Assembly (NCBI GenBank): GCA_035513775.1
Contig: DATKBR010000099.1
Location: forward strand, 1,879 to 65,878
Reading direction: 5' to 3'
DNA: 64,000 nt
DNA from: Candidatus Limnocylindria bacterium
GTDB lineage: Bacteria > Chloroflexota > Limnocylindria > Limnocylindrales > CSP1-4
Made by a program: the position numbers and the translations under genes. This document shows, piece after piece, positions 5,727 through 45,693 of the stretch. Every line of letters starts with the position of its first letter. The stretch's first letter is position 1. Under the pieces are notes generated by a model, which saw only the letters and a list, made by a program, of their open reading frames with translations, searched no databases and had not been told where the DNA came from.

Positions 5727-6362
5727 TCAGGCCGTTCCGCCGACGATCACGACGTCAAGCACACGCGGTCCATGTACGCCCTCGACCCGCTGGAGCTCGA
5801 TGTCGCTCGTGGCCGATGGTCCGCTGATCCACGTGAGGGGGCGTCGCGGATCGAGCCGATCGAGCGCCTCCGGTACGGTCCCGACGACCCGCTCGGCGTC
5901 GACGATGCAGAGGTGCCGGTCGGGCAGGAGGCTCAACGCCCGGCGGCCCTGGCCAGGACCCGCATCGAGGACGATGGTCCCCGTCTCCGCGATCGCGATC
6001 GCGCAGTCGGTGATCACCCCATCGACGGCGTCGAGGTCGGTCACCGAGAGCGGCGGCTCGTCCCCGACGAGCTGCAGGTCGGCAGTCGCGGCAAGCCAGT
6101 CGACCGGCAGGCCAGACGGAACGACCAGTCGACTGACGCCGCGGAGCGCCAGGACCGATGCGATGACGCGGGGCAGCTCGGCCGCCGCGGCATGGTGGAC
6201 GGTGGCGCGGTAGTCGGCGACGCGCTCAGCGAACAGCCGAACCGGGTCGATGTCCGGCGGCAGGCGCCGCTCGTACTCGCGTGGGATGACCACCGCGGCC
6301 GGATCATCGACCAATGCCGCGGCGATCCGGGCGAGGATCGCCGAGCGAGCGTCGCTCATCAT
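5727..6362 (-). CDS. lutC: lactate utilization protein C (LutC/YkgG family)
   Basis: The start is chosen at the ATG in the ATGATGA overlap with the lutB stop (6359-6362). The product begins MMSDARSAILARIAAAL and shows LUD-domain-like sequence. It is the third gene of a lutA-lutB-lutC array. Confidence 0.8.
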   Translation of the reverse strand: MMSDARSAILARIAAALVDDPAAVVIPREYERRLPPDIDPVRLFAERVADYRATVHHAAAAELPRVIASVLALRGVSRLVVPSGLPVDWLAATADLQLVGDEPPLSVTDLDAVDGVITDCAIAIAETGTIVLDAGPGQGRRALSLLPDRHLCIVDAERVVGTVPEALDRLDPRRPLTWISGPSATSDIELQRVEGVHGPRVLDVVIVGGTA

Positions 6363-7870
6363 CCGCCCGTCCCCCCACCGGTCCGTCGCCACCACCGGCG
6401 GAACGCCTCTCGCGCCGGTGCCGGCAGATCGCGGCCGCGAAGCCACGAGCGGAGCCAGACCGGTCCCGGCGCCCGGCGGATCGGCCCGCCGAACCCGAGG
6501 ATGCGGCCGCCGAGGCTGGCCAGCCGTTCCGCGAATGAGAACCGGCGCGGACCCCGGAATGCCCACCCGATCGACGCCATGAGCACCGCCTCCTCGGAGG
6601 CGCGGGCCCGCCAGCCGCGCTGGTCCACGACCTTGGCGCGCAGGTGGACGAGCACCTGGGGGATGTCGATCCGCACCGGGCAGACCTCCAGGCACGCTCC
6701 GCACAACGTCGACGCATAGGGAAGCGACGCCGTCTGGGCGTCAACGGCGTGAACGTTGATCCCGCGCAACTGCGGCGTCAGGATCGCCCCGATGGGTCCC
6801 GGGTACGGCGACCCATAGGCGCTGCCACCCGTGCGCTCATAGACCGGGCAGACGTTCAGGCAGGCCGAGCACTTGATGCAGCGCAGGGCCTGACGCCCAA
6901 CCGGGTCGACGAGCGTGTCCGTCCGGCCGTTATCGAGCAGGATCAGATGGAAGGCCTGCGGGCCATCGCCAGGCGTGACCCCTGTCCACATCGAGGTGTA
7001 GGGGTTCATCCGCTCCGCCGTCGACGACCTGGGCAGGAGCTGGAGGAAGACCTCGAGGTCCTGCCAGCGCGGGACCAGCTTCTCGATCCCCATCACCGTG
7101 ATCAGCGTCTGGGGCAGCGTCAGGCACATCCGGCCGTTGCCCTCCGACTCGACGACCATCACGGTACCGGTCTCGGCCACGGCGAAGTTGGCGCCGGAGA
7201 CCGCCACCCTCGCCCGCAGGAACTTCTCGCGGAGGTGGAGCCTCGCCGCCTCCGCGAGAGCCCGGGGCTCGTCCGTCAGGTTCGGCGGCGCCGGCCGACC
7301 CACGCCGGCCATCTCACGCAGGAAGATGTCACGCACCTGCTGGCGGTTGCGGTGGATCGCGGGCACGAGAATGTGCGACGGGAGGTCCTCGCCCAGCTGG
7401 ACGATCAGCTCCGCAAGGTCGGTTTCCCATGCCGCGATCCCGGCCCGGCCGAGCGCCTCGTTGAGCTCGATCTCCTGGGTCACCATGGACTTGACCTTGA
7501 TCACCTCGTCCGATCCGGCGTCCCGGACGAGGCCGACGACGATCGCGTTCGCCTCCGCGGCGTCTCGAGCCCAATGGACGGTGCCGCCGGCCGCCGCCAC
7601 GGCCGCCTCGAGCTGGACGAGCAGGACCGGAAGCTGCTGGAGCGCGCTGTCCTTGATCGCCGCGCCCGCCAGCCGGAGGGCTTCCCAGTCTTCGCGCTCG
7701 GCGACAGCCTGCGCTCGCTTCGCCCTGATCGTGGCCGTGGCGCGCGCGAGGTTCACCCGCAGTTGGACGTCCGCAAGGGCGGCCCTGGCCGCGATCGGGA
7801 ATGGCGCCGTGCCCCTGAACGTCGGCACCGCGCGCGGCGCCCGGTCACCGGGGTCGCCACTGTCGATCAC
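6359..7870 (-). CDS. lutB: lactate utilization iron-sulfur protein LutB (YkgF family)
   Basis: 503 aa with two 4Fe-4S ferredoxin motifs (CIKCSACLNVCPVY and CGACLEVCPV). The GTG start overlaps the lutA stop (GTGA at 7867-7870). Confidence 0.9.
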   Translation of the reverse strand: MIDSGDPGDRAPRAVPTFRGTAPFPIAARAALADVQLRVNLARATATIRAKRAQAVAEREDWEALRLAGAAIKDSALQQLPVLLVQLEAAVAAAGGTVHWARDAAEANAIVVGLVRDAGSDEVIKVKSMVTQEIELNEALGRAGIAAWETDLAELIVQLGEDLPSHILVPAIHRNRQQVRDIFLREMAGVGRPAPPNLTDEPRALAEAARLHLREKFLRARVAVSGANFAVAETGTVMVVESEGNGRMCLTLPQTLITVMGIEKLVPRWQDLEVFLQLLPRSSTAERMNPYTSMWTGVTPGDGPQAFHLILLDNGRTDTLVDPVGRQALRCIKCSACLNVCPVYERTGGSAYGSPYPGPIGAILTPQLRGINVHAVDAQTASLPYASTLCGACLEVCPVRIDIPQVLVHLRAKVVDQRGWRARASEEAVLMASIGWAFRGPRRFSFAERLASLGGRILGFGGPIRRAPGPVWLRSWLRGRDLPAPAREAFRRWWRRTGGGTGG

Positions 7871-8610
7871 GACGGGCCGCCGGCGGCGAGGATCTCAGCG
7901 AGGTGCACCACTCGCACCGCCGAGCCGGTGCGCGAGAGCAATCCGCCGAGGTGCATGAGGCAGGACATGTCGGCCGCGGTGAGCACCGTGGCGCCGGAGT
8001 CCGTGATTGCGGCGATCCTATCGGCGCCCATCGCCAGCGAGGTATCGGCGTTCTTCACCGCGAACGTCCCGCCGAAGCCGCAGCACTGGTCAGCTCCTGC
8101 GACCTCTGCCAGGCTCAGCCCGCGGACTGCGGCGAGGAGCCGGCTCGGCCGGTCGCCGATCCCGAGGGTACGCACCGAGTGGCACGTCTGATGGAAGGCC
8201 ACCCGATAGGGGAACGCGGCGCCAACGTCTGTGACCCCGAGGATGTCGACCAGGAACTCGGTCAACTCGTACACGGGTGGCGCGGCGGCGACCCGCGCAG
8301 GCAGGGCGGGGTCCAGGCCGCGCGCGCTCGCAAGCCCGGCGACCGTGGCGTGCTCGCGACGGACCATGGCCGCACACGAGGGCGACGGCGTGACCACCGC
8401 GTCAAAGCCGGCGAACGTGTCCGTGAACCTGCGTACGAGCGGCACGCACGCCTCGTGAAAGCCGGTGTTGAAGTGTATCTGGCCGCAGCAGGTCTGGTCC
8501 GCAGGGAACTCGACCTCCTGGCCCAGTCGGCGGAGCAGCGTCACGACCGCCCTCCCGACGCCCGGGAAAAGCATGTCGTTGAAGCAGGTGATGAACAGCG
8601 CTACCCGCAT
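7867..8610 (-). CDS. lutA: (Fe-S) oxidoreductase LutA (YkgE family, CCG domains)
   Basis: 247 aa beginning MRVALFITCFNDMLFPGVG, with QTCCGQ and DQCCGFGG cysteine-rich CCG motifs. Confidence 0.9.
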   Translation of the reverse strand: MRVALFITCFNDMLFPGVGRAVVTLLRRLGQEVEFPADQTCCGQIHFNTGFHEACVPLVRRFTDTFAGFDAVVTPSPSCAAMVRREHATVAGLASARGLDPALPARVAAAPPVYELTEFLVDILGVTDVGAAFPYRVAFHQTCHSVRTLGIGDRPSRLLAAVRGLSLAEVAGADQCCGFGGTFAVKNADTSLAMGADRIAAITDSGATVLTAADMSCLMHLGGLLSRTGSAVRVVHLAEILAAGGPS

Positions 8611-9931: not shown

Positions 9932-11158
9932 TCATGGGTGCAGCGCCTGCCGGATCCTGTCGAGCGCGTCGAGCCGCATCAGGCCGTAGTGGTAGAAGTC
10001 GACGCGGCTGACGGCGTGGCGCTCCGCGAGCTCTATCTTGACCCGCAGGTTATCGACGCTCGTGGAGTCCGGGGCTGTCGGCCGGAGCGCGACCACGAGG
10101 CGCGGCCCGGGACCCAGCACCTCGCGGTAGGCGGCCATGTCTCCCGCGATCCACGCCGGGTCAGCCGCGTAGCCCAGGATCTCGATGTCGTCGGATGCGC
10201 CCGCCAGGCCGGCGAGGTCCAGCCCGAGCTGCCACGCGATCGTCGGGCTGGGGGCCCCGACGGGCCGGCCCGTGGCGTATCCCTTGTACGCCCCTGACGG
10301 GTCGAGGAACGTGAGCCTGACGCCCGCGGCGGAGAGGACAACGCGGAGCTCCGCCGCCAGGCTGGTCACGACCCGCTCGCGCATCCGGAGGTAGCCGCCG
10401 AGGTCGCCGCCGGCCATGGCCGCGACCTCGTCCCGGGTCAGTTCGCCCGGCGGGTCGTCTACATCCGCCTGAAACGCCTGCTCGATCTGCCCCGCCGCCC
10501 AGCGCCGGATCGCCTCCCCGTCCAGCCCGTCGCGGCCGGCCTCGACCAGGCACGACGCGCAGAAGCAGAGCCCCATCAGCAGCCGTGTGCGCGGTCCCAA
10601 CGGCAGGAAGTAGCGCTCGTGGTGGACCCCGTGCTCGAGCGGGAAGAACTGGACGGCCTCCGAGAGCACCGTCCGGACCCCGCGTCCCGCGACGTCCCGG
10701 GCCAGCGCACGAGCGTAGGCGCGGCCCCCCGGGTTCGACGCGCAGAGGTCGGTCTGGATCGGGTCACCGAACGCGTTCCGCGGGGCCTGCTCGAGGTGCT
10801 CGCCGAGCCGGTCGTGGTGCAGGAACACCGTCCAGGCATGGACGTCGATGCCTCGCCGGTCGGCCGCGCCGACGAGGTCCGCGAGCGGATCGCCGGCGTC
10901 CGCGAGCCGGCTAGGGCGGGCCTTGACGGTCGAATCGGCCCAGGCCGCCGGGTTGGGGCGGAAGAATGTCGAGCCCGGCTCCAGGTAGCGGACGTGGCCC
11001 GACCGCCCATGCGGGAAGACGTCGCGGCCCTCGTGGTAGGTCACGGCCATGAGCACGCCGTTGGCTCCGGCCCGATCGACGACATTCGAGACGACTTCGT
11101 CGGCCCCCTCGTCGATGACGTCGTAGGCGAACGTGAACAGCGCCGCATCCATGCTCAT
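9932..11158 (-). CDS. uncharacterised conserved protein, paralogue A (CFCxxC motif, TIM-barrel-like guess)
   Basis: The real start is taken at the ATG in the ATGA overlap with the upstream PLP gene stop (11155-11158). The 593-aa ORF's N-terminal 185 aa is Arg/Gly/Pro shadow. It shares blocks with 45694-46893: FTFAxDxxDEGAD, AWTVxLH, GxHHER, CFCxxC and the C-terminal FYxYGxMRLxALDxIRxAL. Confidence 0.7.
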   Translation of the reverse strand: MSMDAALFTFAYDVIDEGADEVVSNVVDRAGANGVLMAVTYHEGRDVFPHGRSGHVRYLEPGSTFFRPNPAAWADSTVKARPSRLADAGDPLADLVGAADRRGIDVHAWTVFLHHDRLGEHLEQAPRNAFGDPIQTDLCASNPGGRAYARALARDVAGRGVRTVLSEAVQFFPLEHGVHHERYFLPLGPRTRLLMGLCFCASCLVEAGRDGLDGEAIRRWAAGQIEQAFQADVDDPPGELTRDEVAAMAGGDLGGYLRMRERVVTSLAAELRVVLSAAGVRLTFLDPSGAYKGYATGRPVGAPSPTIAWQLGLDLAGLAGASDDIEILGYAADPAWIAGDMAAYREVLGPGPRLVVALRPTAPDSTSVDNLRVKIELAERHAVSRVDFYHYGLMRLDALDRIRQALHP

Positions 11159-14536: not shown

Positions 14537-15865
14537 CTAGAAGAAGGTGGGGACCAGGCCTCGGACCCGTCGGGCGTCATCGACCGCGAGCATGACCCGC
14601 CAGCGCTCGAACGCCTCACAGGGGTGCGAGATTCCACATCCGATGAGATCGCCGGGCGCCGGATCGATGCGGCCGCCGAGGTCCAGGTAGGCATGTTGGT
14701 CGTCCATCCGTCGGACACGGATGGCGGGCTCGATCGGCTCGACTTCGTGGCCGCGCCGGAGGTGCCACCGGGCCAAGGGCGTGTCGATGCGCGCCGGCGC
14801 GTCGCGGTGGCCGAAACCCACTACCGCGAGCTCACGCTCCGGCCGGGAGATAACGACTCCCCAGAGCTCGAGCGCTGCCTGCAGCCGGCCGTACTGCGGG
14901 AGCCGACCGCTGGTGGCCGACATCGGGGATGACCGCAGGTAGAGGCCGTCGTCGTGCGTCACGTAGCCACCCGGCCGGAGGACCAGTTGGTAGTCGGGCA
15001 AGGCCGACCTGCCAAGCATGGCCACCACGCGGTCGAAGTAGACGCTGCCTCCGGCACTCACCAGCGGCTTCGCGACGGCAAGGTCGGGCAGGATCCGGCG
15101 TGCGACCTCGGCGAGCGAATCAAGGTACGCGTCCGCGGCCAGCTCGCGGGCCTCCGCCGTGTCCCCGGGAGCAATCCCCTCATATCCCTCGATCCCGAGG
15201 AGTTCGACCCGGGGATGCGCCTCGCGAGCGGCGCGGATGACGCGGTCGATCGAGCCCGGGTCGCGAGCCCCGGCGCGGCCGCCCGGGAAGCCATGCTCGA
15301 CGAGCATGCCGACGGGGCGATCGAGCCCAGCCGCCGTTGCGGCATCCGCCCACGCTGCCACATTGACCGGATCATCTACCAGTACGATCAGCGAGAACGT
15401 GGGATCGGCGGACAGCTCGGCGACGAGCCTGCCGATCTCGCCGGGATGGGTGACCTCGTTCGCGATGAGGATCCGGCCGATGCCGAACGCGCGGCAGCTG
15501 AGTGCCTGCCGCGTGGTTGCGACCGTCACGGCCCACGCCCCAGCCCGCAGCTGCTCGGCAATGATGTGCGGGGCCATGGTCGTCTTGCAGTGCGGCGCCA
15601 GCCAGGCCCCCGCATCGTCGCAGAAGGACTGCATGGTCGCGATGTTTGCCAGGAGGGAGTCCCAGCGCACGACCATCTGAGGGAAGGTCACGCGGTCGTC
15701 GAACGCGGAGATCCCGGCTTCGGCGATGCCCGCCGGCGTCGCGGCGACGTCACGCGGCCCGCTGCGGAAGGAGGGATCGAGGGGCCGTGCCGCCCAGCTG
15801 CGCAGCGCTGCGTCGAGCGGCGCGAGTCCCGTCCCGGTGGCCGCTGCGTCGCCCGCGGCCGTCAC
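14537..15865 (-). CDS. DSD1-type PLP enzyme (alanine-racemase-fold N domain plus D-serine-dehydratase-like C domain)
   Basis: 442 aa. The GTG start overlaps the stop of the lipoyl-domain gene (GTGA at 15862-15865). It carries the PLP-lysine block LAPHCKTT and overall resembles the D-Ser dehydratase / D-Thr aldolase / D-3-hydroxyaspartate enzyme family. Confidence 0.75.
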   Translation of the reverse strand: MTAAGDAAATGTGLAPLDAALRSWAARPLDPSFRSGPRDVAATPAGIAEAGISAFDDRVTFPQMVVRWDSLLANIATMQSFCDDAGAWLAPHCKTTMAPHIIAEQLRAGAWAVTVATTRQALSCRAFGIGRILIANEVTHPGEIGRLVAELSADPTFSLIVLVDDPVNVAAWADAATAAGLDRPVGMLVEHGFPGGRAGARDPGSIDRVIRAAREAHPRVELLGIEGYEGIAPGDTAEARELAADAYLDSLAEVARRILPDLAVAKPLVSAGGSVYFDRVVAMLGRSALPDYQLVLRPGGYVTHDDGLYLRSSPMSATSGRLPQYGRLQAALELWGVVISRPERELAVVGFGHRDAPARIDTPLARWHLRRGHEVEPIEPAIRVRRMDDQHAYLDLGGRIDPAPGDLIGCGISHPCEAFERWRVMLAVDDARRVRGLVPTFF

Positions 15866-16107
15866 GCGGGATCGGTGTCGTCGATGTAGCCGAGTACGAT
15901 CTCGACGGGGACGGGATCGTTGCTGGCGGCCACGAGGATCTCGAGCCGTCCGTCCGCAGGAGCCTCGATCTCGGCGTTGGCCTTGTCGGTCTCCACGACG
16001 AGCAAAGGGTCGCCCTTGGCGACGCGCTCTCCGCTATGCCGCAGCCACTCCACGACCGTCGCCGACTCCATCAGGCCCAGTTGCGGGATGACGATCTCGG
16101 TCCTCAT
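15862..16107 (-). CDS. free-standing lipoyl-attachment domain protein (81 aa)
   Basis: MRTEIVIPQLGLMESATVVEWLRHSGERVAKGDPLLVVETDKANAEIEAPADGRLEIL carries the ETDKA lipoyl-lysine motif. The ATG lies in an ATGA overlap with the RidA stop (16104-16107). No E2 catalytic domain follows. Confidence 0.8.
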   Translation of the reverse strand: MRTEIVIPQLGLMESATVVEWLRHSGERVAKGDPLLVVETDKANAEIEAPADGRLEILVAASNDPVPVEIVLGYIDDTDPA

Positions 16108-16541
16108 TCCGCCGCGCCTTTCGGCAGTGGCGCGTAGGCAATGCATTCGATCTCCACCAGGTAGATGCCGTAGATCTTCCCGCCGACGGACGTCCGGGCG
16201 GGCGGCTCGGTCGGGAAGTACTCCTGGTAGACCCGGTTGTAGGCAAGGAAGTCACGATCGACGTCGCGGAGGAACGTATTGACCTTCACGACGTCCGCGA
16301 GCGTGGCGCCGGCCGCCGCGAGCGCCCCCTTGATGCTCTCGAGTGCTTGGCGCGTTTCCGCCTCGATGCCGCCCGGGATCAGCTCGCCGGGCAGCCACGT
16401 CGTGCCCTCCCCGCTTGGCGGGCGGTTCGGCAACAGGCCGGCGTGCCCGGACACGAAGACGAGGTCACCAGCCCGCACCGCGGGTGAGAGGAACGGATGA
16501 TCCGGGGGTCCGTCCGGAACCTTGATCACGACCTTGCTCAT
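16104..16541 (-). CDS. RidA/YjgF-family protein
   Basis: 145 aa with FVSGHAGL..., VVKVNTFLRDV and PARTSVGG...VEIECIAY blocks typical of RidA. Confidence 0.85.
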   Translation of the reverse strand: MSKVVIKVPDGPPDHPFLSPAVRAGDLVFVSGHAGLLPNRPPSGEGTTWLPGELIPGGIEAETRQALESIKGALAAAGATLADVVKVNTFLRDVDRDFLAYNRVYQEYFPTEPPARTSVGGKIYGIYLVEIECIAYAPLPKGAAE

Positions 16542-16582: not shown

Positions 16583-17281
16583 TCAGATGTGCCCGTGGTG
16601 GTCGAAGCTCTCCGACGGCGTGGCGCCCTCGCGGATCTCCGCCCGGACCTTGCCTTCGGCGACGACGATGCTCTCGGCCCGCTCCAGAACGGCCTCGGCC
16701 TGCGCGCGAGGCACGATCAACACCCCCTCGAACTCGGCGATGACGATGTCGCCGGGGTGTACGACCACATCGCCGATGGTCACCGGGACCTGCTCCGCGA
16801 CCATCTCCCAGCGGCCGATCCCGTTGCGCGAGCAGAGGTCGCGAAAGACGATCGGCAGGCCGATCTCGCGCAGGCCCGCGACGTCGCGCAAGTTGCCGTC
16901 AAGGATCACGCCGACACAGCCGCGGCCCTGGGCCGCATTGCCGGTCAGCTCGCCGAAGTGTCCGACGAAGCCCTCCGGGGTCGTCGAGACGAGCACCGAA
17001 TCGGGCTCGAGTTGCTCGAAGACGCGGAGGTACGAACGCATCCGCCCAACGCCCTCGTCCCAACCGACAGCCGGAACGATCTCCTTACCGACGACCGTGT
17101 ATGCGACTCCCACGAATGCCTGCTCTGGAAAAAGTGGCCGCAGGTTCGACGGGAGGAGCGGCTCGGGCAGCCCCAGCTCGAAGAGAGCGTCGCACACCGC
17201 GGGCATGTAAAGGGCGCGGAACCGGCGGCAGATCTCGGCGATCGTCAACGGAGTCTCCATCAGCGGGCGGGCCGACGCCAT
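16583..17281 (-). CDS. RraA-like protein (HMG/CHA aldolase / oxaloacetate decarboxylase family)
   Basis: The ATG at 17281 is chosen (MASARPLMETPLTIAEICRRF). The motif GELTGNAAQGRGCVGVILDGNLRDVAGLREIGLPIVFR is present. The ORF-track TTG at 17308 would overlap an operator-like site. Confidence 0.8.
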   Translation of the reverse strand: MASARPLMETPLTIAEICRRFRALYMPAVCDALFELGLPEPLLPSNLRPLFPEQAFVGVAYTVVGKEIVPAVGWDEGVGRMRSYLRVFEQLEPDSVLVSTTPEGFVGHFGELTGNAAQGRGCVGVILDGNLRDVAGLREIGLPIVFRDLCSRNGIGRWEMVAEQVPVTIGDVVVHPGDIVIAEFEGVLIVPRAQAEAVLERAESIVVAEGKVRAEIREGATPSESFDHHGHI

Positions 17282-17291
17282 TGTATCGAAG

Positions 17292-17304
17292 GCGGTAGGA
17301 CCAA
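17292..17304. promoter_or_regulatory. putative GntR-type operator GCGGTAGGACCAA
   Basis: GGT-AGG-ACC core lying 11 nt upstream of the RraA-like ATG. It sits inside an 18-bp block identical to 18959-18976. Confidence 0.5.
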
Positions 17305-17369
17305 TCAATACACTGGCGATGCTGTTTCGCGCGTCAATTCATCACGCCTTGGGCGGGAGATGAGACGCA

Positions 17370-17382
17370 ATGGCCGGACCAT
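17370..17382. promoter_or_regulatory. putative GntR-type operator ATGGCCGGACCAT within the 7-5-7 inverted repeat GCAATGG-CCGGA-CCATTGC
   Basis: Read directly at 17367-17385. The 22-bp block 17367-17388 is identical to 19036-19057. Confidence 0.5.
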
Positions 17383-17520
17383 TGCGATCATCAGCCAACG
17401 GCGCTGGGACACGTGGCGGGCTCGGGATCCCGGCGTGATTGCCAGCCTTGACGACCGGTCGAGTCGTCGCGATCCCCCGGCTGGGGATACGCGCGTCCGC
17501 CAACAGCACCTCCGCGGTGA

Positions 17521-18959: not shown

Positions 18960-18972
18960 GCGGTAGGACCAA
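18960..18972. promoter_or_regulatory. putative GntR-type operator GCGGTAGGACCAA (second copy)
   Basis: Identical to 17292-17304 and located in the P450/SDR divergent intergenic region. Confidence 0.5.
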
Positions 18973-19038
18973 TCAAGACGCCAATGACAAAGAGCTCGAG
19001 CGATTGAACCATCATAAACAAGTCCCGTAGTGGCTGCA

Positions 19039-19051
19039 ATGGCCGGACCAT
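19039..19051. promoter_or_regulatory. putative GntR-type operator ATGGCCGGACCAT (second copy)
   Basis: Identical to 17370-17382. It ends 5 nt upstream of a TTGACA -35 hexamer. Confidence 0.55.
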
Positions 19052-19056
19052 TGCGA

Positions 19057-19093: not shown

Positions 19094-19873
19094 GTGGACG
19101 AAGGATTCCCGCCGCGCGGTGCCGAACGGTTCTCGCTCGTGGGACGGGTCGCCGTCGTGACCGGTGCGGGCAGCGGCCTCGGCCAGGCTGTAGCCATTGG
19201 GTTCGCCCAGGTTGGGGCCCGGATCGTGGTCGCGGACCTGCCCGGCGCGGACTTTGGCCCGGTCCAGGCGGCGTCTCCCGATCCTGTCATGGCGATTGAC
19301 GTGGACGTTTCCGACCGGGACGCCGTGGACCGGATGGCTGCCACTGTCCTCGCCGAACTGGGCCGCGCGGACGTCCTGGTCAACAGCGCCGGAATCGGCG
19401 GACGCTCCCCGGCCGAGACCTACCCGGCGGACCTCCTCGCGAAGATCCTGGCCGTGAACCTCGTAGGCACGCTGAGTTGCTGCCAAGCTTTCGGCCGGAT
19501 CATGCTCGCGGCGGGCCGCGGCTCGATCATCAACTTCGCCTCGGTCGGGGGACTGGTGGGCTACCCGGGCAGTGTCGGGTATCAGGCCAGCAAGGGCGCG
19601 ATCGTCCAGGTCACACGCTCCCTGGCCATCGAGTGGGCAACGCGCGGCGTCCGCGTCAACGCGATCGCGCCCTGTCAGTTCGAGACCCCTGTCGTGCGGC
19701 GGCAGTGGGAGCGCGAGCCGGAGATGAAGCAGTACTGGTTGTCCCGCACGCCGATCGGGCGCCTCGGTCATCCGGAGGAGATCATCGGCCCGGCGATCTT
19801 TCTCGCCTCGGATGCATCGGCCATGGTGACGGGGCACACCCTGCCGGTCGATGGAGGATTCGTCGCCCAGTGA
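19094..19873 (+). CDS. SDR-family oxidoreductase
   Basis: 259 aa with VAVVTGAGSGLGQAVA, the catalytic YQASK and VTGHTLPVDGG. Confidence 0.85.
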   Translation: MDEGFPPRGAERFSLVGRVAVVTGAGSGLGQAVAIGFAQVGARIVVADLPGADFGPVQAASPDPVMAIDVDVSDRDAVDRMAATVLAELGRADVLVNSAGIGGRSPAETYPADLLAKILAVNLVGTLSCCQAFGRIMLAAGRGSIINFASVGGLVGYPGSVGYQASKGAIVQVTRSLAIEWATRGVRVNAIAPCQFETPVVRRQWEREPEMKQYWLSRTPIGRLGHPEEIIGPAIFLASDASAMVTGHTLPVDGGFVAQ

Positions 19874-20868
19874 CCCGCAAGGCCGTTGCGGACCATCCGC
19901 TCGAGTCCGCGGACCTCCGGCGCCTCTATGAGACGATGGTCAAGATCCGCATCTTCGAGGAGCGGGTCCAGGAGCTGTTTCTGGCGCGGAAGCTGCCGGG
20001 GTTCGTCCACGTCTATCTGGGCGAGGAGGCCGTGGCCACGGGCGTCTGCGACGCGCTTCAGCCGGGCGACTACATCACCTCGACCCATCGCGGGCATGGG
20101 CACGCCGTGGCCAAAGGGGTGCGCCTGGATCCGCTGATGGCCGAGCTGTACGGCAAGGAGACCGGAGTCTGCCGCGGTCGCGGCGGATCGATGCACGTCG
20201 CGGACTTCAGCCTCGGGATGCTGGGCGCCAACGGAATTGTGGGGGGCGGTTTCGGGATCGCGGCAGGGGCCGCGCTCACCTCAAAGCTGCTTGACCTGGG
20301 GCGAGTGGCAGTGTGCTTCTTCGGGGACGGCGGGATCAACAAGGGGACGTTCCACGAGGCGCTGAACTTCGCATCGGTGCAGCAGCTCCCCGTCGTCTAC
20401 GTGTGCGAGAACAACCAGTTCGCCCAGTTCACGGCCCGCGAGCGCACGACGTCCGTCGAGGACCTGTCAGTGCGCGCAGCGGGCTACGGCATTCCGGGCC
20501 ACACGGTCGACGGCAACGACATCGAGGCCGTTCGCGGAGTGGCGGGTGATGCGATCGACAGGGCGCGCCGGGGCGAGGGTCCGAGCCTCCTTGTCATGGA
20601 GACCTATCGCTACGGCGGTCACTTCGTCGGCGACATGGAGGAGTACCGCGACAAGGCCGCCGTCGAGCAGCAGCGCGACCGCGACCCGATCCGGCGGGCC
20701 GAGACCATCCTGCTCGCGCGTGGCGTGGACGAGGCTGAACTCGCGAAGGTCCGGGAGGCGGCCCGGGTAGAGGTCGAGCTCTCGGTGGAGTTCGCCGAGC
20801 AGAGCCCCTACCCGGACGCGTCGACCGCGCTCGACGGCCTGTTCGCCACACCGGTGGTGCAGTCGTGA
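19870..20868 (+). CDS. TPP-dependent 2-oxoacid/acetoin dehydrogenase E1 component, alpha subunit
   Basis: The GTG at 19870 overlaps the SDR stop (GTGA). The TPP motif FFGDGGINKGTFHEALNFASVQQLPVVYVCENNQFA is present. The upstream part of the 463-aa ORF is shadow. Confidence 0.9.
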   Translation: MTRKAVADHPLESADLRRLYETMVKIRIFEERVQELFLARKLPGFVHVYLGEEAVATGVCDALQPGDYITSTHRGHGHAVAKGVRLDPLMAELYGKETGVCRGRGGSMHVADFSLGMLGANGIVGGGFGIAAGAALTSKLLDLGRVAVCFFGDGGINKGTFHEALNFASVQQLPVVYVCENNQFAQFTARERTTSVEDLSVRAAGYGIPGHTVDGNDIEAVRGVAGDAIDRARRGEGPSLLVMETYRYGGHFVGDMEEYRDKAAVEQQRDRDPIRRAETILLARGVDEAELAKVREAARVEVELSVEFAEQSPYPDASTALDGLFATPVVQS

Positions 20869-21923
20869 CGGCGATGGGGCCCGATGGGCCAGAGCGGGCG
20901 GTCGATCGCCAGATGACCTTCGGCCAGGCGACGGTCGAGGCGCTCAGCATCGCGATGCGTGCTGACGAACGCGTGATCGTCCTGGGCGAGGATATTGGCT
21001 GGGGCGGCAACTTCGGCCAGTTCCGTGGCCTGCTCAAGGAGTTCGGGCCGAGGCGGGTGATCGACATGCCCATCTCTGAGTCGATCATCATGGCGGTGTC
21101 CGTCGGCGCGGCATCGACCGGCATGCGCCCGGTCGCCTCGATGAGCTTCGTCGAATTCACGATGGGAGCGATGGATGAGATCGTGAATCAGGCTGCGAAG
21201 TTCCGGTTCATGTTCGGTGGCCAGACATCGGTGCCGCTCGTGCTCCGTGCGTCAGACGGCGTGCTCCGGTCCTCGGCCGCGCAGCACTCCGAGAGCTTCG
21301 AGGCAATCTTCGCCCATATCCCGGGGCTCAAGGTCGTCGCGCCCGCGACGGCTGCTGACGCAAAAGGACTCCTGGCGACCGCGATCGCCGACGACGACCC
21401 GGTCGTCTACCTCGAGAACAAGCGGATCGGCTCGAGCCGCGGCGAGGTGCCCGACGGCGAATATTTCGTCCCGCTTGGCCGGGCTCGTATCGCCCGGGAG
21501 GGCCGCGACGTGACAGTGGTCTGCTACTCGGTCATGGTCACCTATGCGCTCGACGCAGCGAAGGTCCTCGCCGAGCAGGATGGCATCGACGTGGAGATCG
21601 TCGATCTGCGCACGCTCGTGCCGCTCGATATGGCGACCGTCGATGCCTCGGTGGCCAAGACCGGACACGCGGTGATCGCCCACGAGGCCTGGCGATTCGG
21701 CGGCTTCGGGGCGGAGCTGGCAGCCCAGATCTCCGAGCGCCACTTCGGCCGGCTCGGCGCGCCCGTGGCACGGGTCGGCGCGAAGCACTCGCACATGCCG
21801 TTCAGTCCGCCCCTGGAGCGCGCCGTCGCGCCGCAGGCCGAGGAGATCACCCACGCCGTGCGGACGACGCTCGCTCACCGCGCCCGCGCTGTGGCCACCG
21901 GCCGGGACGCTGGACGGACATGA
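20865..21923 (+). CDS. 2-oxoacid/acetoin dehydrogenase E1 component, beta subunit (transketolase-like)
   Basis: 352 aa with VIVLGEDIG...RVIDMPISESIIMAVSVGAA and the C-terminal transketolase domain. A GTGA overlap joins it to E1 alpha. Confidence 0.9.
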   Translation: MTAMGPDGPERAVDRQMTFGQATVEALSIAMRADERVIVLGEDIGWGGNFGQFRGLLKEFGPRRVIDMPISESIIMAVSVGAASTGMRPVASMSFVEFTMGAMDEIVNQAAKFRFMFGGQTSVPLVLRASDGVLRSSAAQHSESFEAIFAHIPGLKVVAPATAADAKGLLATAIADDDPVVYLENKRIGSSRGEVPDGEYFVPLGRARIAREGRDVTVVCYSVMVTYALDAAKVLAEQDGIDVEIVDLRTLVPLDMATVDASVAKTGHAVIAHEAWRFGGFGAELAAQISERHFGRLGAPVARVGAKHSHMPFSPPLERAVAPQAEEITHAVRTTLAHRARAVATGRDAGRT

Positions 21924-22672
21924 ACCGCCAGCTGGCCGCCGAACGTCCGGACGACTTGCCCGCCGCGGGTCAGGACGGGGCCGATGGGTCCGGGAACCTT
22001 CGAACGATGTCGCTGGCGGAGGGCGCCGCTGTCAAGATCGCTCAGGAGATCACCTCGGGAGCGATCCGGCCCGGCCAGCGGCTCCCAGCCGAGCGAGAGC
22101 TCGCCCAGCGCTTCGGCCTCAGCCGTGGCGCGTTGCGGGAGGGCCTGAGGACCCTGGAATCGGTCGGACTCGTCACGGCCAGGGTAGGGCAGGGGCGGTT
22201 CGTCGCCGATACGGGCTCTGATCGTCCGTCCATGGCCCTGACCGCCCTGATGCAGGTTCAGCCGAGCGGCGACATCGTGGCGCTCCGCTCGCTCCTCGAG
22301 CCGGCGCTGGTCCGGGAGATGCCGGCGGCCCAGATGGCTCCGACCGCGGCGGCAGCAGCCGAGCTCCTGGTCAGGATGCGGCGCGCCCAGGCCGCCGGCG
22401 CGATCAACCAGGCCGTCCGCGACCACACGGAGTTCCACCGTCTTCTGATTCGTTTCGGCGCGACGCGTCTGTCGCGGACGCTCCTGTCGAGTCTCATCGA
22501 AGCGGCCGCGGTATGGCAGCCGGCCATCCTCCGCGACCGCGACGCCGCCCGGACCTGGGTGGAGGAACACCGGGAGATCGTGACCGCCCTCGAGACTGGG
22601 GATATCGATCGTGCCGCGGAGCAGGTGTTGGCGCATCTCCGGCCGGCGTTCACCTACCGAAGCGCTGACTGA
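21920..22672 (+). CDS. GntR-family transcriptional regulator (FadR/FCD subfamily)
   Basis: The wHTH is LPAERELAQRFGLSRGALREGLRTLESVGLVTARVGQGRFV. The helical FCD-type C-terminal domain has conserved His residues (EFHRLL, EHREIV, LAHL). An ATGA overlap joins it to E1 beta. Confidence 0.9.
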   Translation: MNRQLAAERPDDLPAAGQDGADGSGNLRTMSLAEGAAVKIAQEITSGAIRPGQRLPAERELAQRFGLSRGALREGLRTLESVGLVTARVGQGRFVADTGSDRPSMALTALMQVQPSGDIVALRSLLEPALVREMPAAQMAPTAAAAAELLVRMRRAQAAGAINQAVRDHTEFHRLLIRFGATRLSRTLLSSLIEAAAVWQPAILRDRDAARTWVEEHREIVTALETGDIDRAAEQVLAHLRPAFTYRSAD

Positions 22673-22692: not shown

Positions 22693-23913
22693 GTGTCGAT
22701 CGACCGACGCGCGTTCATCCGATCCCTGAGCGGTCAGGCGGTCCGATCCATCGGCGCGGCACTGGCGTTGACCGGACAGGTGCGCCAGGACATCGCGCAA
22801 GAGCTGCGCCAGGAGGACCCGGTCGCCGCGCAGTCCACCGAGGCGCGGCCGACGCACGCGGATGATCGCTCCGCGGACTGGCAGTCGGCGGAGATCCATC
22901 CCGGTCCGACGGAAGGCGTGGCACTCGGCGCGTGGGCTGACGTGCCCGCCGTGCCGAGCGTCCTGACCGAGGCGGGCACAATCGAGGCCCTGGACCAGCG
23001 ACGACTGCCGCATGACGTCCAGTGGGTGACCCTTGCGTCGGCCGGCGAGGTCGTGCAGGCGATCAGGGACGGCGTCATCGACGGCGGTGCGGCGATGGTC
23101 GGGGTCGCCGTCCAGACCGTCGCCATGGTGGCCACCCGGGCCGCCGATGCCCCCGCCACGTCCCGTGGGGCGGTCATCTCGGGCGCGGCGCGGGCGCTTT
23201 CCGCGGCCCGGCCCGATACCCCGCTGGTCCGCGAGGCCCTGGCCGCGTTCATCCCCGACCTGCACGCCATCGAGATCCCGACGCTCGATGAGCTCCGGTC
23301 GGCCGCGGCGTCGCGCGCCGCGAGCGTCCAGGCCGAGCATCGGGCTCTGGCCAGCGTGGGAGCCGCCTGGTTGCTGGAGCGCTTCCGGCCGGACGCCAAC
23401 GTCGTATTGGCTGGGGAGTTCGGACCCGCCGCCGCGGCCTCCATCGGGACGACCTCGGCCGTGCTCCGAGGGGCCGCCGAAGCCGGACTGCACCTCCGTG
23501 TCCACGTACTGGACGGCGAGCCGCCGGCCACGAGCGTCGCGCTGCTGCTGGCTGCAGTCGGAGTTGCCCCGATCGAAATCCGATCCGTCCCGGACGTTCG
23601 CCTGGAGCAGCTGTTGGCCGAGTCCGACGTCAACGTCGTCCTTCTGGGGGCCAGTTGGGTGAGCGCGGACGGAACCCTGGCGGGCCGCCTCGGATCCGTC
23701 GCGGCCGCGCTACTGGCACGGCGACGAGGGATCCCGGTCGTCGGTCTCGCCTCCCGGTCGATGGTCGTCCACGGCGCTGCCGGCCAGGCGGCTGCTGCGA
23801 CGTCACGGTCGCACGGAGGCGTTCCGCTGGAGCTCGTGGACGGCTCGCTCGTGGACCTGATCCTCACCGACGTCGGCGCGGTCAGCCCTGAATCCATGGG
23901 CAGACTCCGATGA
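22693..23913 (+). CDS. eIF-2B alpha/beta/delta / MtnA-like family protein (divergent)
   Basis: 406 aa. IEALDQRRLPHDVQWV matches the LDQxxLPxE entry motif of MTR-1-P isomerase-like proteins. Later blocks (VLLGASWVSADGTLAGRLGSVAAALLARRRGIPVV) align to GADRIAxNGDxANKIGT but with substitutions. The N-terminus (MSIDRRAFIRSL) resembles a twin-arginine motif. Confidence 0.6.
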   Translation: MSIDRRAFIRSLSGQAVRSIGAALALTGQVRQDIAQELRQEDPVAAQSTEARPTHADDRSADWQSAEIHPGPTEGVALGAWADVPAVPSVLTEAGTIEALDQRRLPHDVQWVTLASAGEVVQAIRDGVIDGGAAMVGVAVQTVAMVATRAADAPATSRGAVISGAARALSAARPDTPLVREALAAFIPDLHAIEIPTLDELRSAAASRAASVQAEHRALASVGAAWLLERFRPDANVVLAGEFGPAAAASIGTTSAVLRGAAEAGLHLRVHVLDGEPPATSVALLLAAVGVAPIEIRSVPDVRLEQLLAESDVNVVLLGASWVSADGTLAGRLGSVAAALLARRRGIPVVGLASRSMVVHGAAGQAAAATSRSHGGVPLELVDGSLVDLILTDVGAVSPESMGRLR

Positions 23914-23944: not shown

Positions 23945-25531
23945 ATGGCGGGTGCCGTCGACGTCGTGATACGGCACGGCTCCATCATCGACGGTCTGGG
24001 CGCCCCCGCCGTCCGAGGGGATATCGCGATCGACGGCGACCGGATCGTGGCCGTCGGGCCCGGCCTCAGTGCCGACGCGCGCGAGGTCGTGGACGCAGAC
24101 GGACTCGCGGTGGCTCCGGGCTTCATCGACCTCCACGCGCACGCGGACCTGGGACTGCTTGCCGATGGGCGCTGGCAATCCTCGCTGGACCAGGGCGTGA
24201 CGACCCTGGTCATCGGCCAGGACGGGCTGGGTTTGGCCCCGCTCAACGATCGCGCGGTGGCAATCCGGCGCGAGCTGCGGGGCATCAACGGCGATCCGGA
24301 CGTTGTGTCCTGGACGTGGCGCACGTTCGCCGAGTACCTGGCCCGGATGGAGGGCCGGATCGGGCCGAACGTCGCGGCCATGGTCCCCCACGGGACGATC
24401 CGGCTCGTGGTGATGGGCGAGGACGATCGACCGCCAACCGAGTCCGAGCTCGTCGAGATGCAGGCGCTCGTCATGCGCTCAATGCAACAGGGGGCATTCG
24501 GGCTGTCGGCGGGGCTGACCTACGCGCCCGCCACATTCGCGGACGACGAGGAGCTGGTTGCCCTCTGCCGCGAGATTGCCCCGTTCGGCGGCTTCTACCA
24601 GCCGCACCATCGGAACTACGGCGAGTGGGCAATCCGCGAGTTCGCCGCGTCGATCGAGATCGGCCGACGCGCTGGTGTCCCCGTCCACCTGACGCACGCT
24701 CACCTCAGCTTCCCGGTCAACGCCGGACGTGCGCACGAGCTGCTGTCGCTCGTGGACGAGGCGCGCGCGGCCGGCCACGACGTCACGCTCGACTCCTACC
24801 CGTACCTCGCCGGAGCGACGTACCTGGGAGCGTTCCTCCCGTCATGGGCGCAGGTCGGCGGCCCCGACGGCGTCGTCGCCCGCCTCGGCGATCCGGCTGC
24901 CCGCGCGCGGATTGCGGGCGAGATGGTCCGGGGTTGCGACGGCCTCCAGGGGATCCCGGTCGACTGGTCCCTGATCACCGTAGCCGGGGTCGACTCCCCG
25001 GCGATGTCCGCCGTCGTCGGGAAGTCGATCGACGAGCTCGCGGCGGCGTGGGGTACATCGGCCTTCGACGCCTTCTGCCGGCTCCTCGTCGACGACCGCA
25101 TGGGCACGATGGCGCTGCTCACGGTCGGGCACGAGGACAACGTGCGCGCCATCATGGCGCACCCCATGCATATGCCGGCCAGCGACGGGATCGTCATCGG
25201 CCAGCGTCCACATCCGCGTGCCTGGGGCACATTCGCCCGGTTCCTCGGGGTCTACGTCCGTGAGCTCGGGCTCGTGCCGCTCGAGGAGATGGTCAGGAAG
25301 ATGACCTCGGCGCCCGCTCGGCGCCTCGGCCTCGTGGATCGCGGCGTCCTGCAACGCGGCATGGCTGCCGACATCGTCGTCTTCGATCCGCGGACGATCA
25401 TCGACCGCGCGACCTACGCCGAGCCGAAGCGCCCCCCCGAAGGCGTCGACGCCGTCCTCGTCAACGGGGCCTTCGTGCGTCGCGACGGCCGCTCGCTCGA
25501 CCCTCGATCCGGTCGTGTCCTTCGACGGTGA
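23945..25531 (+). CDS. N-acyl-D-amino-acid deacylase (D-aminoacylase) family amidohydrolase
   Basis: 528 aa. VVIRHGSIIDGLGAP...IAIDGDRIVAVG...APGFIDLHAHAD...QGVTTLVIGQDG is colinear with characterised D-aminoacylases. Confidence 0.85.
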   Translation: MAGAVDVVIRHGSIIDGLGAPAVRGDIAIDGDRIVAVGPGLSADAREVVDADGLAVAPGFIDLHAHADLGLLADGRWQSSLDQGVTTLVIGQDGLGLAPLNDRAVAIRRELRGINGDPDVVSWTWRTFAEYLARMEGRIGPNVAAMVPHGTIRLVVMGEDDRPPTESELVEMQALVMRSMQQGAFGLSAGLTYAPATFADDEELVALCREIAPFGGFYQPHHRNYGEWAIREFAASIEIGRRAGVPVHLTHAHLSFPVNAGRAHELLSLVDEARAAGHDVTLDSYPYLAGATYLGAFLPSWAQVGGPDGVVARLGDPAARARIAGEMVRGCDGLQGIPVDWSLITVAGVDSPAMSAVVGKSIDELAAAWGTSAFDAFCRLLVDDRMGTMALLTVGHEDNVRAIMAHPMHMPASDGIVIGQRPHPRAWGTFARFLGVYVRELGLVPLEEMVRKMTSAPARRLGLVDRGVLQRGMAADIVVFDPRTIIDRATYAEPKRPPEGVDAVLVNGAFVRRDGRSLDPRSGRVLRR

Positions 25532-27443: not shown

Positions 27444-27464
27444 CCCATCCCCCAGACCACTGTC

Positions 27465-29009: not shown

Positions 29010-29015
29010 CACGAG

Positions 29016-29948
29016 ATGATCCGCTACGTCATCCGCCGGCTCGCCTACACCGTCGTAATCCTGTTCGTCGCGTCGATCGTGGTCTTCCTCGCCCTCCGGA
29101 TCACGCCCGGCGACGCCACCAACTTCGTCGTGACGCCGATCTCGTCGCCCGAGCGTTTCGAGGAGCTTCGCCGCGAACTGGGACTGGACCGGCCGCTCAT
29201 CGAGCAGTACGGGGTCTTCATTACCCGGATTCTTACCGGCAACTTCGGTGCCTCCGACATCAGCCATCGCGAGGTCGCCGAGATCATCACCACGGGTCTG
29301 CCCTACACGGTGTGGCTGGCGCTGAGCGCGGCGCTGCTCGTCTACGGCCTGGGCATCCCGCTCGGGGTCATCGCCGCCCTTCGCCGGGATCGCTGGCCCG
29401 ACCAGGTCATCAGCGCCTCGGCGGTGCTTGGCCTCGGAATCCCGAACTTCGTGCTCGCGATCATCCTGATCATGATCTTCGCTATTGGCCTCAACCTGCT
29501 GCCTGTCTCCGGCGCCAGCGGCCCCATGAACGTCATCCTGCCCGCGATCGTGCTCGCCGTGGAGCCCCTCGCGGTCGTCATGCGCGTCGTGCGTTCGTCG
29601 GTGATCGACCAGCTTGGCCAGGACTATGTCCGCACCCTGGAGGCGAAGGGCCTGGCCCGGCGCAGGATCATCTGGGTGCACGTCCTCAGGAACTCCCTGG
29701 GGCCGGTCATCTCGCTGGCCGCCGTCCAGTTCCGCTCAATGCTCGGGTACACGCTCATCGTCGAGGTGATCTTTCGGTGGCCGGGGCTGGGCTCGCAACT
29801 CGTTGACGCCGTCCTGAAGCGCGACTATCTCGTCGCCCAGGACCTGGCCCTGCTGCTCACGGCAGTCGTCATCGTCCTGAATACGCTGGCTGACATCGGG
29901 CAGGCCTATGCGGACCCTCGGGTGCGCGTCCAGGTGACCAACGCATGA
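29016..29948 (+). CDS. ABC transporter permease (DppB/OppB type)
   Basis: 310 aa, multi-TM, with the typical MIRYVIRRLAYTVVILFVASIVVFLALRITPGD N-terminus. Confidence 0.9.
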   Translation: MIRYVIRRLAYTVVILFVASIVVFLALRITPGDATNFVVTPISSPERFEELRRELGLDRPLIEQYGVFITRILTGNFGASDISHREVAEIITTGLPYTVWLALSAALLVYGLGIPLGVIAALRRDRWPDQVISASAVLGLGIPNFVLAIILIMIFAIGLNLLPVSGASGPMNVILPAIVLAVEPLAVVMRVVRSSVIDQLGQDYVRTLEAKGLARRRIIWVHVLRNSLGPVISLAAVQFRSMLGYTLIVEVIFRWPGLGSQLVDAVLKRDYLVAQDLALLLTAVVIVLNTLADIGQAYADPRVRVQVTNA

Positions 29949-42455: not shown

Positions 42456-42463
42456 GCAGCCGA

Positions 42464-44050: not shown

Positions 44051-44372
44051 GGCAGACCTCCCGCGGGAATTCGTGCTCACAGGGCAGCCATCCGGATGCC
44101 GCCACGCCCCTTGGCCGTTGTGCGCCGGAGTGTACGTGAGCAGCGCGTCCCGGACTTCGCTTCCAGCAGTTGCTGAAGGCATTCGTCGGCCCCGGGACCA
44201 GGTCTCCGTCGTATCCGTACGCGGCGATCTTCAGGACGGTTTGGGCGACGATCGCCGACGTCGATCCGCACGGCAAGCGATGTCGATGCCGGCCTCGGTC
44301 AAATCCGGGACCTTCAGGGCGACGACGGCGAAGGGTGTGGGCGAGGGGCGATGACGTGGCCAATCCCGGGCG

Positions 44373-45497: not shown

Positions 45498-45693
45498 GTC
45501 GCCAGTCCCTCCCGCCGATCCGCGTTCGCCACTTGCCGGAGTCCGTGACCTGCACGGAGGATATCCTGCTGCTGCCGCCCGGCCGTGGCGGGGATCGGCC
45601 TCGTGGCCGCGAGCCTGCGCGACAAGCCGACTGCCTGTACGACAGTATGACGATGCGCCCGCCGACGAGCGCGCATCATGCTGAGTGCTCGCA

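Follow-up and report, generated by a model that had tools for sequence, protein, structure and literature searches.

How can a lipoyl domain work when the polypeptide that carries it holds no other domain, and when no E2 acyltransferase core is encoded near its gene? The textbook example of substrate channelling is provided by the 2-oxoacid dehydrogenase complexes, whose lipoyl arms are tethered to the E2 core. The question was raised by a 64 kb stretch of one contig of a Candidatus Limnocylindria (Chloroflexota) metagenome-assembled genome (MAG), called the window in the following (G+C content 70%), which carries on its minus strand an open reading frame (ORF) of 81 amino acids (15862-16107, starting MRTEIVIPQLGLMESATVVEWLRHSGERVAKGDPLLVVETDKANAEIEAPADG). 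Of ten proteins of the window that were compared with a protein collection, eight had exact matches, seven of these under NCBI TPA accessions between HUG30773 and HUG30809 on a contig of 66,340 bp. A preliminary description had regarded this ORF as a lone lipoyl carrier for two orphan E1 alpha/beta pairs of the same window, and had proposed non-E2 partners and possibly coenzyme A (CoA)-independent chemistry. We found that the product is a genuine lipoyl domain. In our judgement the chances are about even that it is a functional untethered carrier, the lipoyl half of a split E2, for the E1 pair with which it is co-regulated (pair 1), with an E2 core acting in trans and a dihydrolipoyl dehydrogenase (E3) that are both encoded elsewhere.

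The protein matched the Pfam family PF00364 (Biotin_lipoyl) with an E-value of 2.2e-16 (59.9 bits, cut-off 22.1) over profile positions 2-72 of 73, and only 6-7 residues follow the lipoyl domain up to the C-terminus. The predicted lipoyl-lysine is K42 in the motif ETDKAN (context VVETDKANAEIEAP). An AlphaFold model (predicted local distance difference test, pLDDT, 74) was all-beta with the fold of a lipoyl domain, and K42 sits at the tip of the hairpin formed by strands 34-39 and 44-48. Compared to the solved lipoyl domains of E2 and of the E3-binding protein (E3BP; 2dnc, 3crk, 1y8n), the model reached TM scores of 0.77-0.82, and the first matches of a PDB sequence search were E2 lipoyl domains as well. 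A Pfam scan of the protein found neither a peripheral-subunit-binding domain (PF02817) nor a catalytic domain (PF00198), and the glycine cleavage H protein profile GCV_H (PF01597) stayed at 16.7 bits, below its cut-off of 22.2. The protein is a genuine lipoyl domain that belongs to the E2-type family without being an E2, an AcoC or an H protein. As linker, E1/E3-binding domain and catalytic domain are all missing from the polypeptide, it can only be a dissociated carrier, as the H protein is. On both points, a lipoyl domain and nothing else, and a dissociated carrier in the manner of the H protein, the preliminary description was right. The gene overlaps its neighbours on both sides, by ATGA with the RidA gene (positions 16104-16107, RidA stop and lipoyl start) and by GTGA with a gene for a DSD1-type enzyme (positions 15862-15865, lipoyl stop and DSD1 start), and both overlaps, proposed before, were read in the sequence. 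Two other views of the gene were tried and given up. A biotin carrier was ruled out by the DKA type of the motif, biotin carriers having MKM, and by the best matches, which are lipoyl domains. A start at the ATG of position 16146, which would give 94 residues, is unlikely in view of the close homologues (P0002-P0008): these have 82 residues and start MRTEIVIP or with a near variant of it.

The 11 homologues compared were all 79-94 residues long, and K42 was invariant in two alignments, one of 15 and one of 11 relatives. Pairwise dN/dS values (Nei-Gojobori) were 0.08-0.29 for the lipoyl gene (about 0.2), 0.07-0.17 for RidA and 0.23-0.31 for DSD1. As the values for the lipoyl gene fall in the range of the two others, purifying selection on it is as strong as on its enzyme neighbours. 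In the related loci L001, L002/L003 and L022 the layout of the window was kept, with the operon RraA-RidA-lipoyl-DSD1 divergent from SDR-E1 alpha-E1 beta (SDR, short-chain dehydrogenase/reductase); on the 2.3-kb contig L023 the part RidA-lipoyl-DSD1 was kept. The lipoyl protein of L002/L003 is 79% identical to that of the window. In every relative the reading frame is intact and the translational coupling is kept, and a pseudogene was ruled out by dN/dS together with the kept frame, lysine and gene overlaps. In L001 (ERZ25039516 contig_4594) the genes for E1 alpha, E1 beta, GntR, the IF-2B-like protein and DSD1 were all called as fragments. These fragments probably reflect indel errors of a long-read assembly rather than true pseudogenes, and L001 was therefore left out of the evidence for gene decay given below. 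Within the window's clade, the beta1-beta2 loop of the lipoyl proteins (GL-ME) is one residue shorter than in all other aligned relatives (alignment A1, column 13). This loop adjoins the lipoyl-lysine turn and helps E1 to recognise its cognate domain.

With the 81-residue query no close relative was found in genome contigs, the best match showing 58% identity. Among the matches listed by a metagenome search with alignment A1, relatives were found at 33-49% identity, mostly ordinary E2s, with stand-alone proteins in about 4 of the 80 loci. When 1.84 billion representative proteins were searched with a profile built from free lipoyl proteins, the best 150 matches were all long multi-lipoyl E2s, because the scores of repeated domains add up, and this search is unusable for counting stand-alone proteins.

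The order SDR-E1 alpha-E1 beta occurs twice in the window, and by coordinates and Pfam matches both pairs are complete and each follows an SDR gene, as had been described. Pair 1 is encoded on the plus strand, with the SDR gene as first gene of the operon (19094-19873, Pfam adh_short_C2, 4e-59), E1 alpha (19870-20868, Pfam E1_dh, 3.9e-76, GTGA overlap with the SDR gene) and E1 beta (20865-21923, Pfam Transket_pyr and Transketolase_C). E1 alpha of pair 1 scored 346.7 bits against TIGR03182, below the cut-off of 393.85, and E1 beta scored 341.8 bits against NF006667, above the cut-off of 321. Pair 2 is encoded on the minus strand (SDR 42464-43306; E1 alpha 41469-42455 and E1 beta 40409-41476, both identified by Pfam, the start of the latter corrected to the ATG at 41476). 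Both E1 alpha proteins carry the thiamine diphosphate (ThDP) motif GDG...NN and the loop histidine, in YRYGGH in pair 1 and in RLVGH in pair 2, and both E1 beta proteins carry QHS(E/Q), with QHSE in pair 1. In the E1 enzymes of Geobacillus and man, the histidines of the alpha loop and of the beta QHS motif act in the reductive acylation of lipoate.

What links the lipoyl gene to pair 1 is a set of operator-like boxes. Upstream of the lipoyl operon (17293-17384) lie TTGATTGGTCCTACCG at 17293-17308 and the palindrome CAATGGTCCGGCCATTG at 17368-17384, and a second copy of both boxes is found at 18961-19053, in front of the SDR-E1 operon. The 17 bp of CAATGGTCCGGCCATTG and the 16 bp of TTGATTGGTCCTACCG have two sites each in the 64 kb, a count reached in none of 100 shuffles, and both boxes were kept in the intergenic regions between the divergent SDR and RraA genes of L001, L002 and L022. 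As the same boxes precede both divergent operons, the lipoyl gene was placed in one regulon with pair 1. The half-sites resemble GntR-family operators, and a candidate binder would be the GntR/FCD regulator encoded directly behind E1 beta of pair 1 (21920-22672, plus strand, Pfam GntR and FCD). No such box was found for pair 2, and the module to which it belongs (40409-45722) has neither a lipoyl gene nor the shared box. Homologues of pair 2 with 63-76% identity were found in E1 alpha-E1 beta-SDR modules without a lipoyl or E2 gene within 10 kb. Of the earlier idea that the carrier serves both orphan E1 pairs, the part on pair 1 was thus strengthened, by the shared boxes and by the adjacency of E1 beta and lipoyl genes in several phyla, and the part on pair 2 was not.

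This adjacency was seen in loci L004, L005 (Aeromicrobium sp.), L007 (Actinomycetota MAG), L070, L099 and L110. There a lipoyl gene of 79-82 codons comes directly after E1 beta and, where this was read, abuts or overlaps the E1 beta stop. L110 lies on a megaplasmid of Thermus thermophilus (NZ_AP024930.1, 284130-290743) with the order TrmB regulator, E1 alpha, E1 beta, 82-residue lipoyl protein and tripartite ATP-independent periplasmic (TRAP) transporter, and neither E2 nor E3 was found within 9 kb. Matches to the lipoyl protein were also found on several other T. thermophilus plasmids, under the annotations 'biotin/lipoyl-containing protein' or 'hypothetical protein'. In other loci the free lipoyl protein comes together with a stand-alone E2 catalytic domain. 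This second family comprises proteins of 217-255 residues with PF00198 only, and the active-site motif S(S/A)DHRAVDG was intact in 7 of the 10 sequences read. In L024 (Solirubrobacteraceae) a lipoyl protein of 74 residues is directly followed by a catalytic protein of 225 residues, near E1 alpha-E1 beta; in L025 the two have 80 and 239 residues. In L026 two consecutive E1 alpha-E1 beta pairs precede the lipoyl (80 residues) and catalytic (231 residues) genes, and in L058 the order is catalytic-only gene, cyclase, E1 alpha, E1 beta and lipoyl gene. The lipoyl domains of L024-L026 are 34-39% identical to that of the window. A further case was found on the conjugative plasmid pGal_E78 of Phaeobacter gallaeciensis (L111, NC_023141.1, 33170-42428). 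Here SDR, M24 peptidase, E1 alpha and E1 beta genes are followed by a gene for a 431-residue protein that combines two lipoyl domains with a binding domain and lacks a catalytic domain, and then by succinate-semialdehyde dehydrogenase, a 292-residue binding-plus-catalytic E2 and lpdA. By gene content this is a split E2, and its host is a cultured bacterium.

The free lipoyl genes sampled from other lineages most often had E1 beta as a neighbour, alone or with a stand-alone catalytic gene in addition. As free lipoyl proteins lie beside stand-alone catalytic genes, their normal partner is a canonical CoA-dependent catalytic domain on another polypeptide. No evidence of an exotic acyl acceptor was seen in the contexts of free lipoyl genes examined. 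The proposal of non-E2 partners and CoA-independent chemistry was not borne out: relatives pair the free lipoyl protein with a stand-alone intact E2 catalytic domain, and sister loci of the window have such a gene directly after DSD1.

For pair 1 with a free carrier and a borrowed E2 core, the following path may be drawn. A D-aminoacylase-like hydrolase and the DSD1-type enzyme, aided by RidA and possibly by the RraA-like protein, would convert an imported D-amino-acid derivative to a 2-oxo acid. E1 alpha/beta of pair 1 would decarboxylate it on ThDP and reductively acylate the lipoyl group at K42 of the free carrier. The acyl-dihydrolipoyl protein would diffuse to an E2 catalytic core acting in trans, where acyl-CoA would be formed, and the carrier would be reoxidised by a general dihydrolipoyl dehydrogenase. 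In sister lineages the catalytic half is encoded by a gene of its own right after DSD1; with its loss here, core and E3 would have to come from elsewhere. E1 enzymes are known to select their own lipoyl domain, with less selectivity at E3 and at acyl transfer, and E1 alpha-E1 beta-lipoyl protein would on this ground be the minimal transferable unit. A trans-acting E2 is plausible for the carrier of the window in view of the stand-alone catalytic domains encoded beside free lipoyl genes. A precedent is known from corynebacteria and mycobacteria, where the catalytic domain of OdhA works with lipoyl domains that another polypeptide, AceF, provides in trans. The two cases differ in that the lipoyl domains stay part of a full E2 there (AceF/DlaT), while the lipoyl domain of the window stands alone.

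Several results weigh against this reading. In Pfam scans of about 50 called window genes, the domains 2-oxoacid_dh and E3_binding were both absent, as was dihydrolipoyl dehydrogenase. The best hit of an E2 catalytic-domain hidden Markov model (HMM) against all six frames of the 64 kb (hmmsearch) had an E-value of 1.3; neither the motif DHRxxDG nor the E3-type motif CxxxxCxP[ST]K occurred in any frame. A tblastn search of the window with an E2 catalytic fragment was negative, and one with the alpha/beta-hydrolase parts of AcoC-type proteins (L006, L010) gave no match at E <= 1; an alpha/beta hydrolase encoded at 52483-53604 is unrelated to AcoC. The absence of both E2 catalytic domain and E3 from the window, stated before, thus held by Pfam, six-frame HMM, motifs and tblastn. 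The loci with a lipoyl gene only likewise had no E2 in their flanks, which were covered over up to 10 kb in L004, L005 and L007 and over shorter distances in L070, L099 and L110. That a housekeeping E2 core works efficiently with a foreign free acyl-lipoyl domain is moreover a presumption on which the reading depends.

The fate of the catalytic gene in the window's own clade points the same way. In L002/L003 a gene for an E2 catalytic domain only begins 3 bp after DSD1 (L002:11577-12174). Its ORF stops at TISNL, where the similarity to the DNA of L027 ends and unrelated sequence runs to the contig end. L027 has DSD1 end, catalytic gene (L027:150-800) and convergent SDR, the latter as in the window, and its catalytic gene lacks about 20 codons including DHRAVDG and has a frameshift in addition. 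Only 9-71 bp, with no remnant, separate the DSD1 stop from that of the convergent SDR gene in the window, L001, L022 and L023; the distance in the window is 34 bp, and no stand-alone catalytic gene is found there. The damage in L002/L003 and that in L027 appear to be independent events. The gene being truncated, deleted or gone, the clade suggests that it is dispensable there. Some of this apparent decay could stem from faulty assembly, since in L002/L003 (SRR11714420) the damaged stretch is at the end of a contig and L027 (ERZ13693045) is covered only 2.3x. If the sequences are taken as they stand, loss of the catalytic gene is under way in the clade and the lipoyl gene is retained, and by comparison of these loci the absence of the catalytic gene in the window is a case of local gene loss.

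The same observations can be read as a module that needs no E2 at all: the free lipoyl protein would be acylated by E1 and discharged by hydrolysis, through a protein of the metallo-beta-lactamase (MBL) fold or another thioesterase, or to another acceptor, so that only an E3-type reoxidation would be needed. We regard this as unlikely. It keeps a small but real share of probability because of the loss of the catalytic gene in the clade and because of the lipoyl-only operons of other phyla. In its favour, the 64 kb hold no E2 catalytic domain, every sampled clade member has a degraded catalytic gene or none while the lipoyl gene is under purifying selection, and E1 alpha-E1 beta-lipoyl operons without E2 in the flanks recur in unrelated phyla. 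Two MBL-fold genes lie in the window as well (33519-34340, plus strand, and 43307-44182, minus strand), the second directly upstream of SDR-E1 alpha-E1 beta of pair 2; as MBL-fold enzymes include thioesterases such as glyoxalase II, their products are candidates if the acyl-lipoyl thioester is hydrolysed. Yet no candidate for an off-loading enzyme is common to the lipoyl-only loci, and positive evidence is lacking. The closest complete architectures always include a canonical catalytic domain with intact active-site motif, what is missing from a 64-kb contig or a 10-kb flank may lie anywhere else in the genome, and hydrolysis would waste the thioester. The wider claim, that E1 alpha/beta and a free lipoyl protein form a complete unit of CoA-independent oxidative decarboxylation that has originated several times, in Limnocylindria, in Actinomycetota and on Thermus megaplasmids, when a split E2 lost its catalytic half, is likewise doubtful.

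A different explanation for the decaying catalytic half is that the lipoyl gene is itself a leftover of a dismantled split E2, with no role or a minor one, and that the E1 pairs work free of lipoate as ThDP lyases, carboligases or dye-linked oxidoreductases. Homologues of pair 2 are indeed common as E1 alpha-E1 beta-SDR without lipoyl or E2 genes within 10 kb, also in a complete Micromonospora genome, and the paulomycin cluster reportedly uses E1-like pairs without E2. Against a leftover stand the dN/dS of the lipoyl gene, which is no higher than that of DSD1, the invariant K42, intact frame and kept coupling in every relative, the coupling of E1 beta and lipoyl genes in independent lineages, and the histidines associated with lipoyl reduction, which both E1 pairs have kept. 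The chance of this explanation is accordingly rated as slim. Finally, the carrier might have nothing to do with E1, being an intermediate of a lipoyl relay for cofactor assembly, the role of GcvH in Bacillus, or serving an enzyme of the RidA/DSD1 operon as dithiol redox partner. Its gene does lie between RidA and DSD1 in this clade rather than beside E1 beta, Sphingobium megaplasmids carry a free lipoyl gene of 76 codons with no E1 nearby, and LutA/LutB-like proteins with HdrB-type CCG domains are encoded at 6359-8610. This possibility was nevertheless considered very improbable: no lipoate ligase or transferase gene was found among the Pfam-scanned genes of the window, the shared operator boxes tie the lipoyl operon to SDR-E1 alpha-E1 beta, E1 beta is the commonest neighbour of the free lipoyl genes elsewhere, the protein is E2-type with GCV_H below cut-off, and the LutAB-like genes are not conserved in L001.

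Compared with known systems, the protein of the window shares family, fold and lipoyl-lysine motif with the E2 lipoyl domains of 2-oxoacid and acetoin dehydrogenases. Among NCBIfam models it matches best the N-terminus of AcoC, the E2 of acetoin dehydrogenase (NF011457, 8.5e-19), and its closest genome matches (53-58% identity) are the lipoyl domains of AcoC-type proteins encoded after E1 alpha-E1 beta (L006, L010). In contrast to an E2, it has 81 residues in all and no linker, peripheral-subunit-binding or catalytic domain. With regard to the acetoin dehydrogenase system (AcoA/B/C/L), the window has SDR-E1 alpha-E1 beta twice, for which either a ketol or a 2-oxo acid may be the substrate. Nearest in layout are the split E2s (L024, L025, L026, L058, pGal_E78), where the carrier is likewise free, of the same size, encoded beside E1 alpha/beta and often translationally coupled. 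This layout, with DSD1 placed between the two halves, was once present in sister loci of the window; the window locus differs by the missing catalytic half. The H protein of glycine cleavage and LbpA of the sulfur-oxidising sHdr systems (PMC6067878) follow the same principle of a small free lipoylated shuttle between enzymes. H proteins belong to another subfamily, however, and have about 125 residues versus 81, and the partners in the window are ThDP enzymes of the E1 alpha/beta type instead of P and T proteins or Hdr. Another single-domain member of the superfamily is BLAP of Bacillus subtilis (YngHB, PDB 1z6h), although its fold match to the protein of the window is weak (TM score 0.60, 18% identity, rank 42). 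BLAP is a biotin carrier in the context of acyl-CoA carboxylase.

In 2018 only five characterised lipoate-dependent complexes plus LbpA were listed (PMC6067878). A full-text literature search of incomplete coverage yielded papers on H protein, LbpA and lipoyl synthase only, with none on E2-type free lipoyl proteins together with E1 alpha/beta and none on split E2. As the coverage was incomplete, novelty is not proven and no new category is claimed. The loci described here nevertheless show an alternative to tethered lipoyl arms that recurs across phyla, with the lipoyl domain as a free protein accompanied by a free catalytic domain or, as in the window, by none nearby. If the free carrier borrows the resident E2 and E3, E1 alpha-E1 beta-lipoyl protein would be a portable plug-in that adds specificity for a 2-oxo acid, which fits its presence on Thermus megaplasmids; if it works without any E2, a new type of lipoate-dependent reaction would be at hand. 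T. thermophilus strains with the TrmB-E1 alpha-E1 beta-lipoyl-TRAP operon offer a cultured and tractable test organism. For annotation it matters that such lipoyl genes are now called 'biotin/lipoyl-containing protein' or 'hypothetical protein' and the E1 genes pyruvate or acetoin dehydrogenase.

In L108 (complete Micromonospora genome CP130426.1) and L109 the homologues of pair 2 lie in clusters of the order enolase-superfamily dehydratase, E1 alpha, E1 beta and SDR, together with rhamnose mutarotase, GFO/IDH/MocA, M20 peptidase and Amidohydro_2 genes. Their gene content suggests a widespread, uncharacterised role of orphan E1 alpha/beta pairs of this type in sugar-acid-like catabolism. On a plasmid of Sphingobium sp. 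(L112, AP027325.1, 448316-448546) a free lipoyl protein of 76 residues, annotated as hypothetical, was found without an E1 gene within 9 kb. Its neighbours are SDRs, an alkene reductase, an enzyme of the 3-keto-5-aminohexanoate-cleavage family and an acyl-CoA synthetase, and the match recurs, again annotated as hypothetical, on megaplasmids of eight further Sphingobium strains.

Other genes of the window were assigned as follows. A pair of paralogues of about 405 residues (9932-11158, minus strand; 45685-46893, plus strand; 35% identity, E-value 1e-73) accompanies the DSD1/SDR/E1 modules, one per module. They matched no Pfam family and only weakly GHL10 (TIM-barrel), an AlphaFold model of one of them from a two-sequence alignment was too poor for a fold search (pLDDT 44), and hhalign found no profile similarity to the E2 catalytic domain, by which they were discarded as an E2 substitute. 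The LutB-like (LUD plus 4Fe-4S) and LutA-like (two CCG domains, HdrB-type) genes at 6359-8610 lie downstream of the lipoyl operon and on the same strand (minus); a role of their products in dithiol/disulfide chemistry is pure speculation. The second module contains, besides pair 2 and its SDR and MBL-fold genes, a DSD1-type enzyme of its own (44373-45722, minus strand).

The lipoyl operon itself, on the minus strand, starts with a gene of the RraA-like aldolase/oxaloacetate decarboxylase family (16583-17281, Pfam RraA-like, 4.2e-24), whose product stayed below the cut-off of the NCBIfam model for 4-carboxy-4-hydroxy-2-oxoadipate aldolase/oxaloacetate decarboxylase. Its start is probably the ATG at 17281, a choice that was guided in part by the operator box at 17293-17308. 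It is followed by the RidA-family enamine/imine deaminase (16104-16541, Pfam Ribonuc_L-PSP, 3.8e-23; NCBI 'RidA family protein', HUG30775.1), the lipoyl gene and the DSD1-type enzyme, a D-serine deaminase-like pyridoxal 5'-phosphate enzyme of fold type III (14537-15865, Pfam Ala_racemase_N and D-ser_dehydrat; PDB 3gwq 'D-serine deaminase', 1.7e-60). Between the two divergent operons lies a cytochrome P450 gene (17521-18807, minus strand, Pfam p450, 3e-32), and the second copy of the boxes is located between it and the SDR-E1 operon. The P450 gene is absent from L001, L002 and L022, where the box region is single-copy. As the box region is duplicated on either side of P450 and single in the relatives without it, the gene seems to have been inserted along with a duplication of the promoter/operator region. 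Behind the GntR/FCD gene, the plus-strand E1 operon is followed by an IF-2B-family isomerase-like gene (22693-23913) and a D-aminoacylase-like amidohydrolase gene (23945-25531, NCBI name 'D-aminoacylase'), both conserved in L001 and L002, and further downstream by the genes of a peptide-type ATP-binding cassette (ABC) transporter (25722-32948, plus strand).

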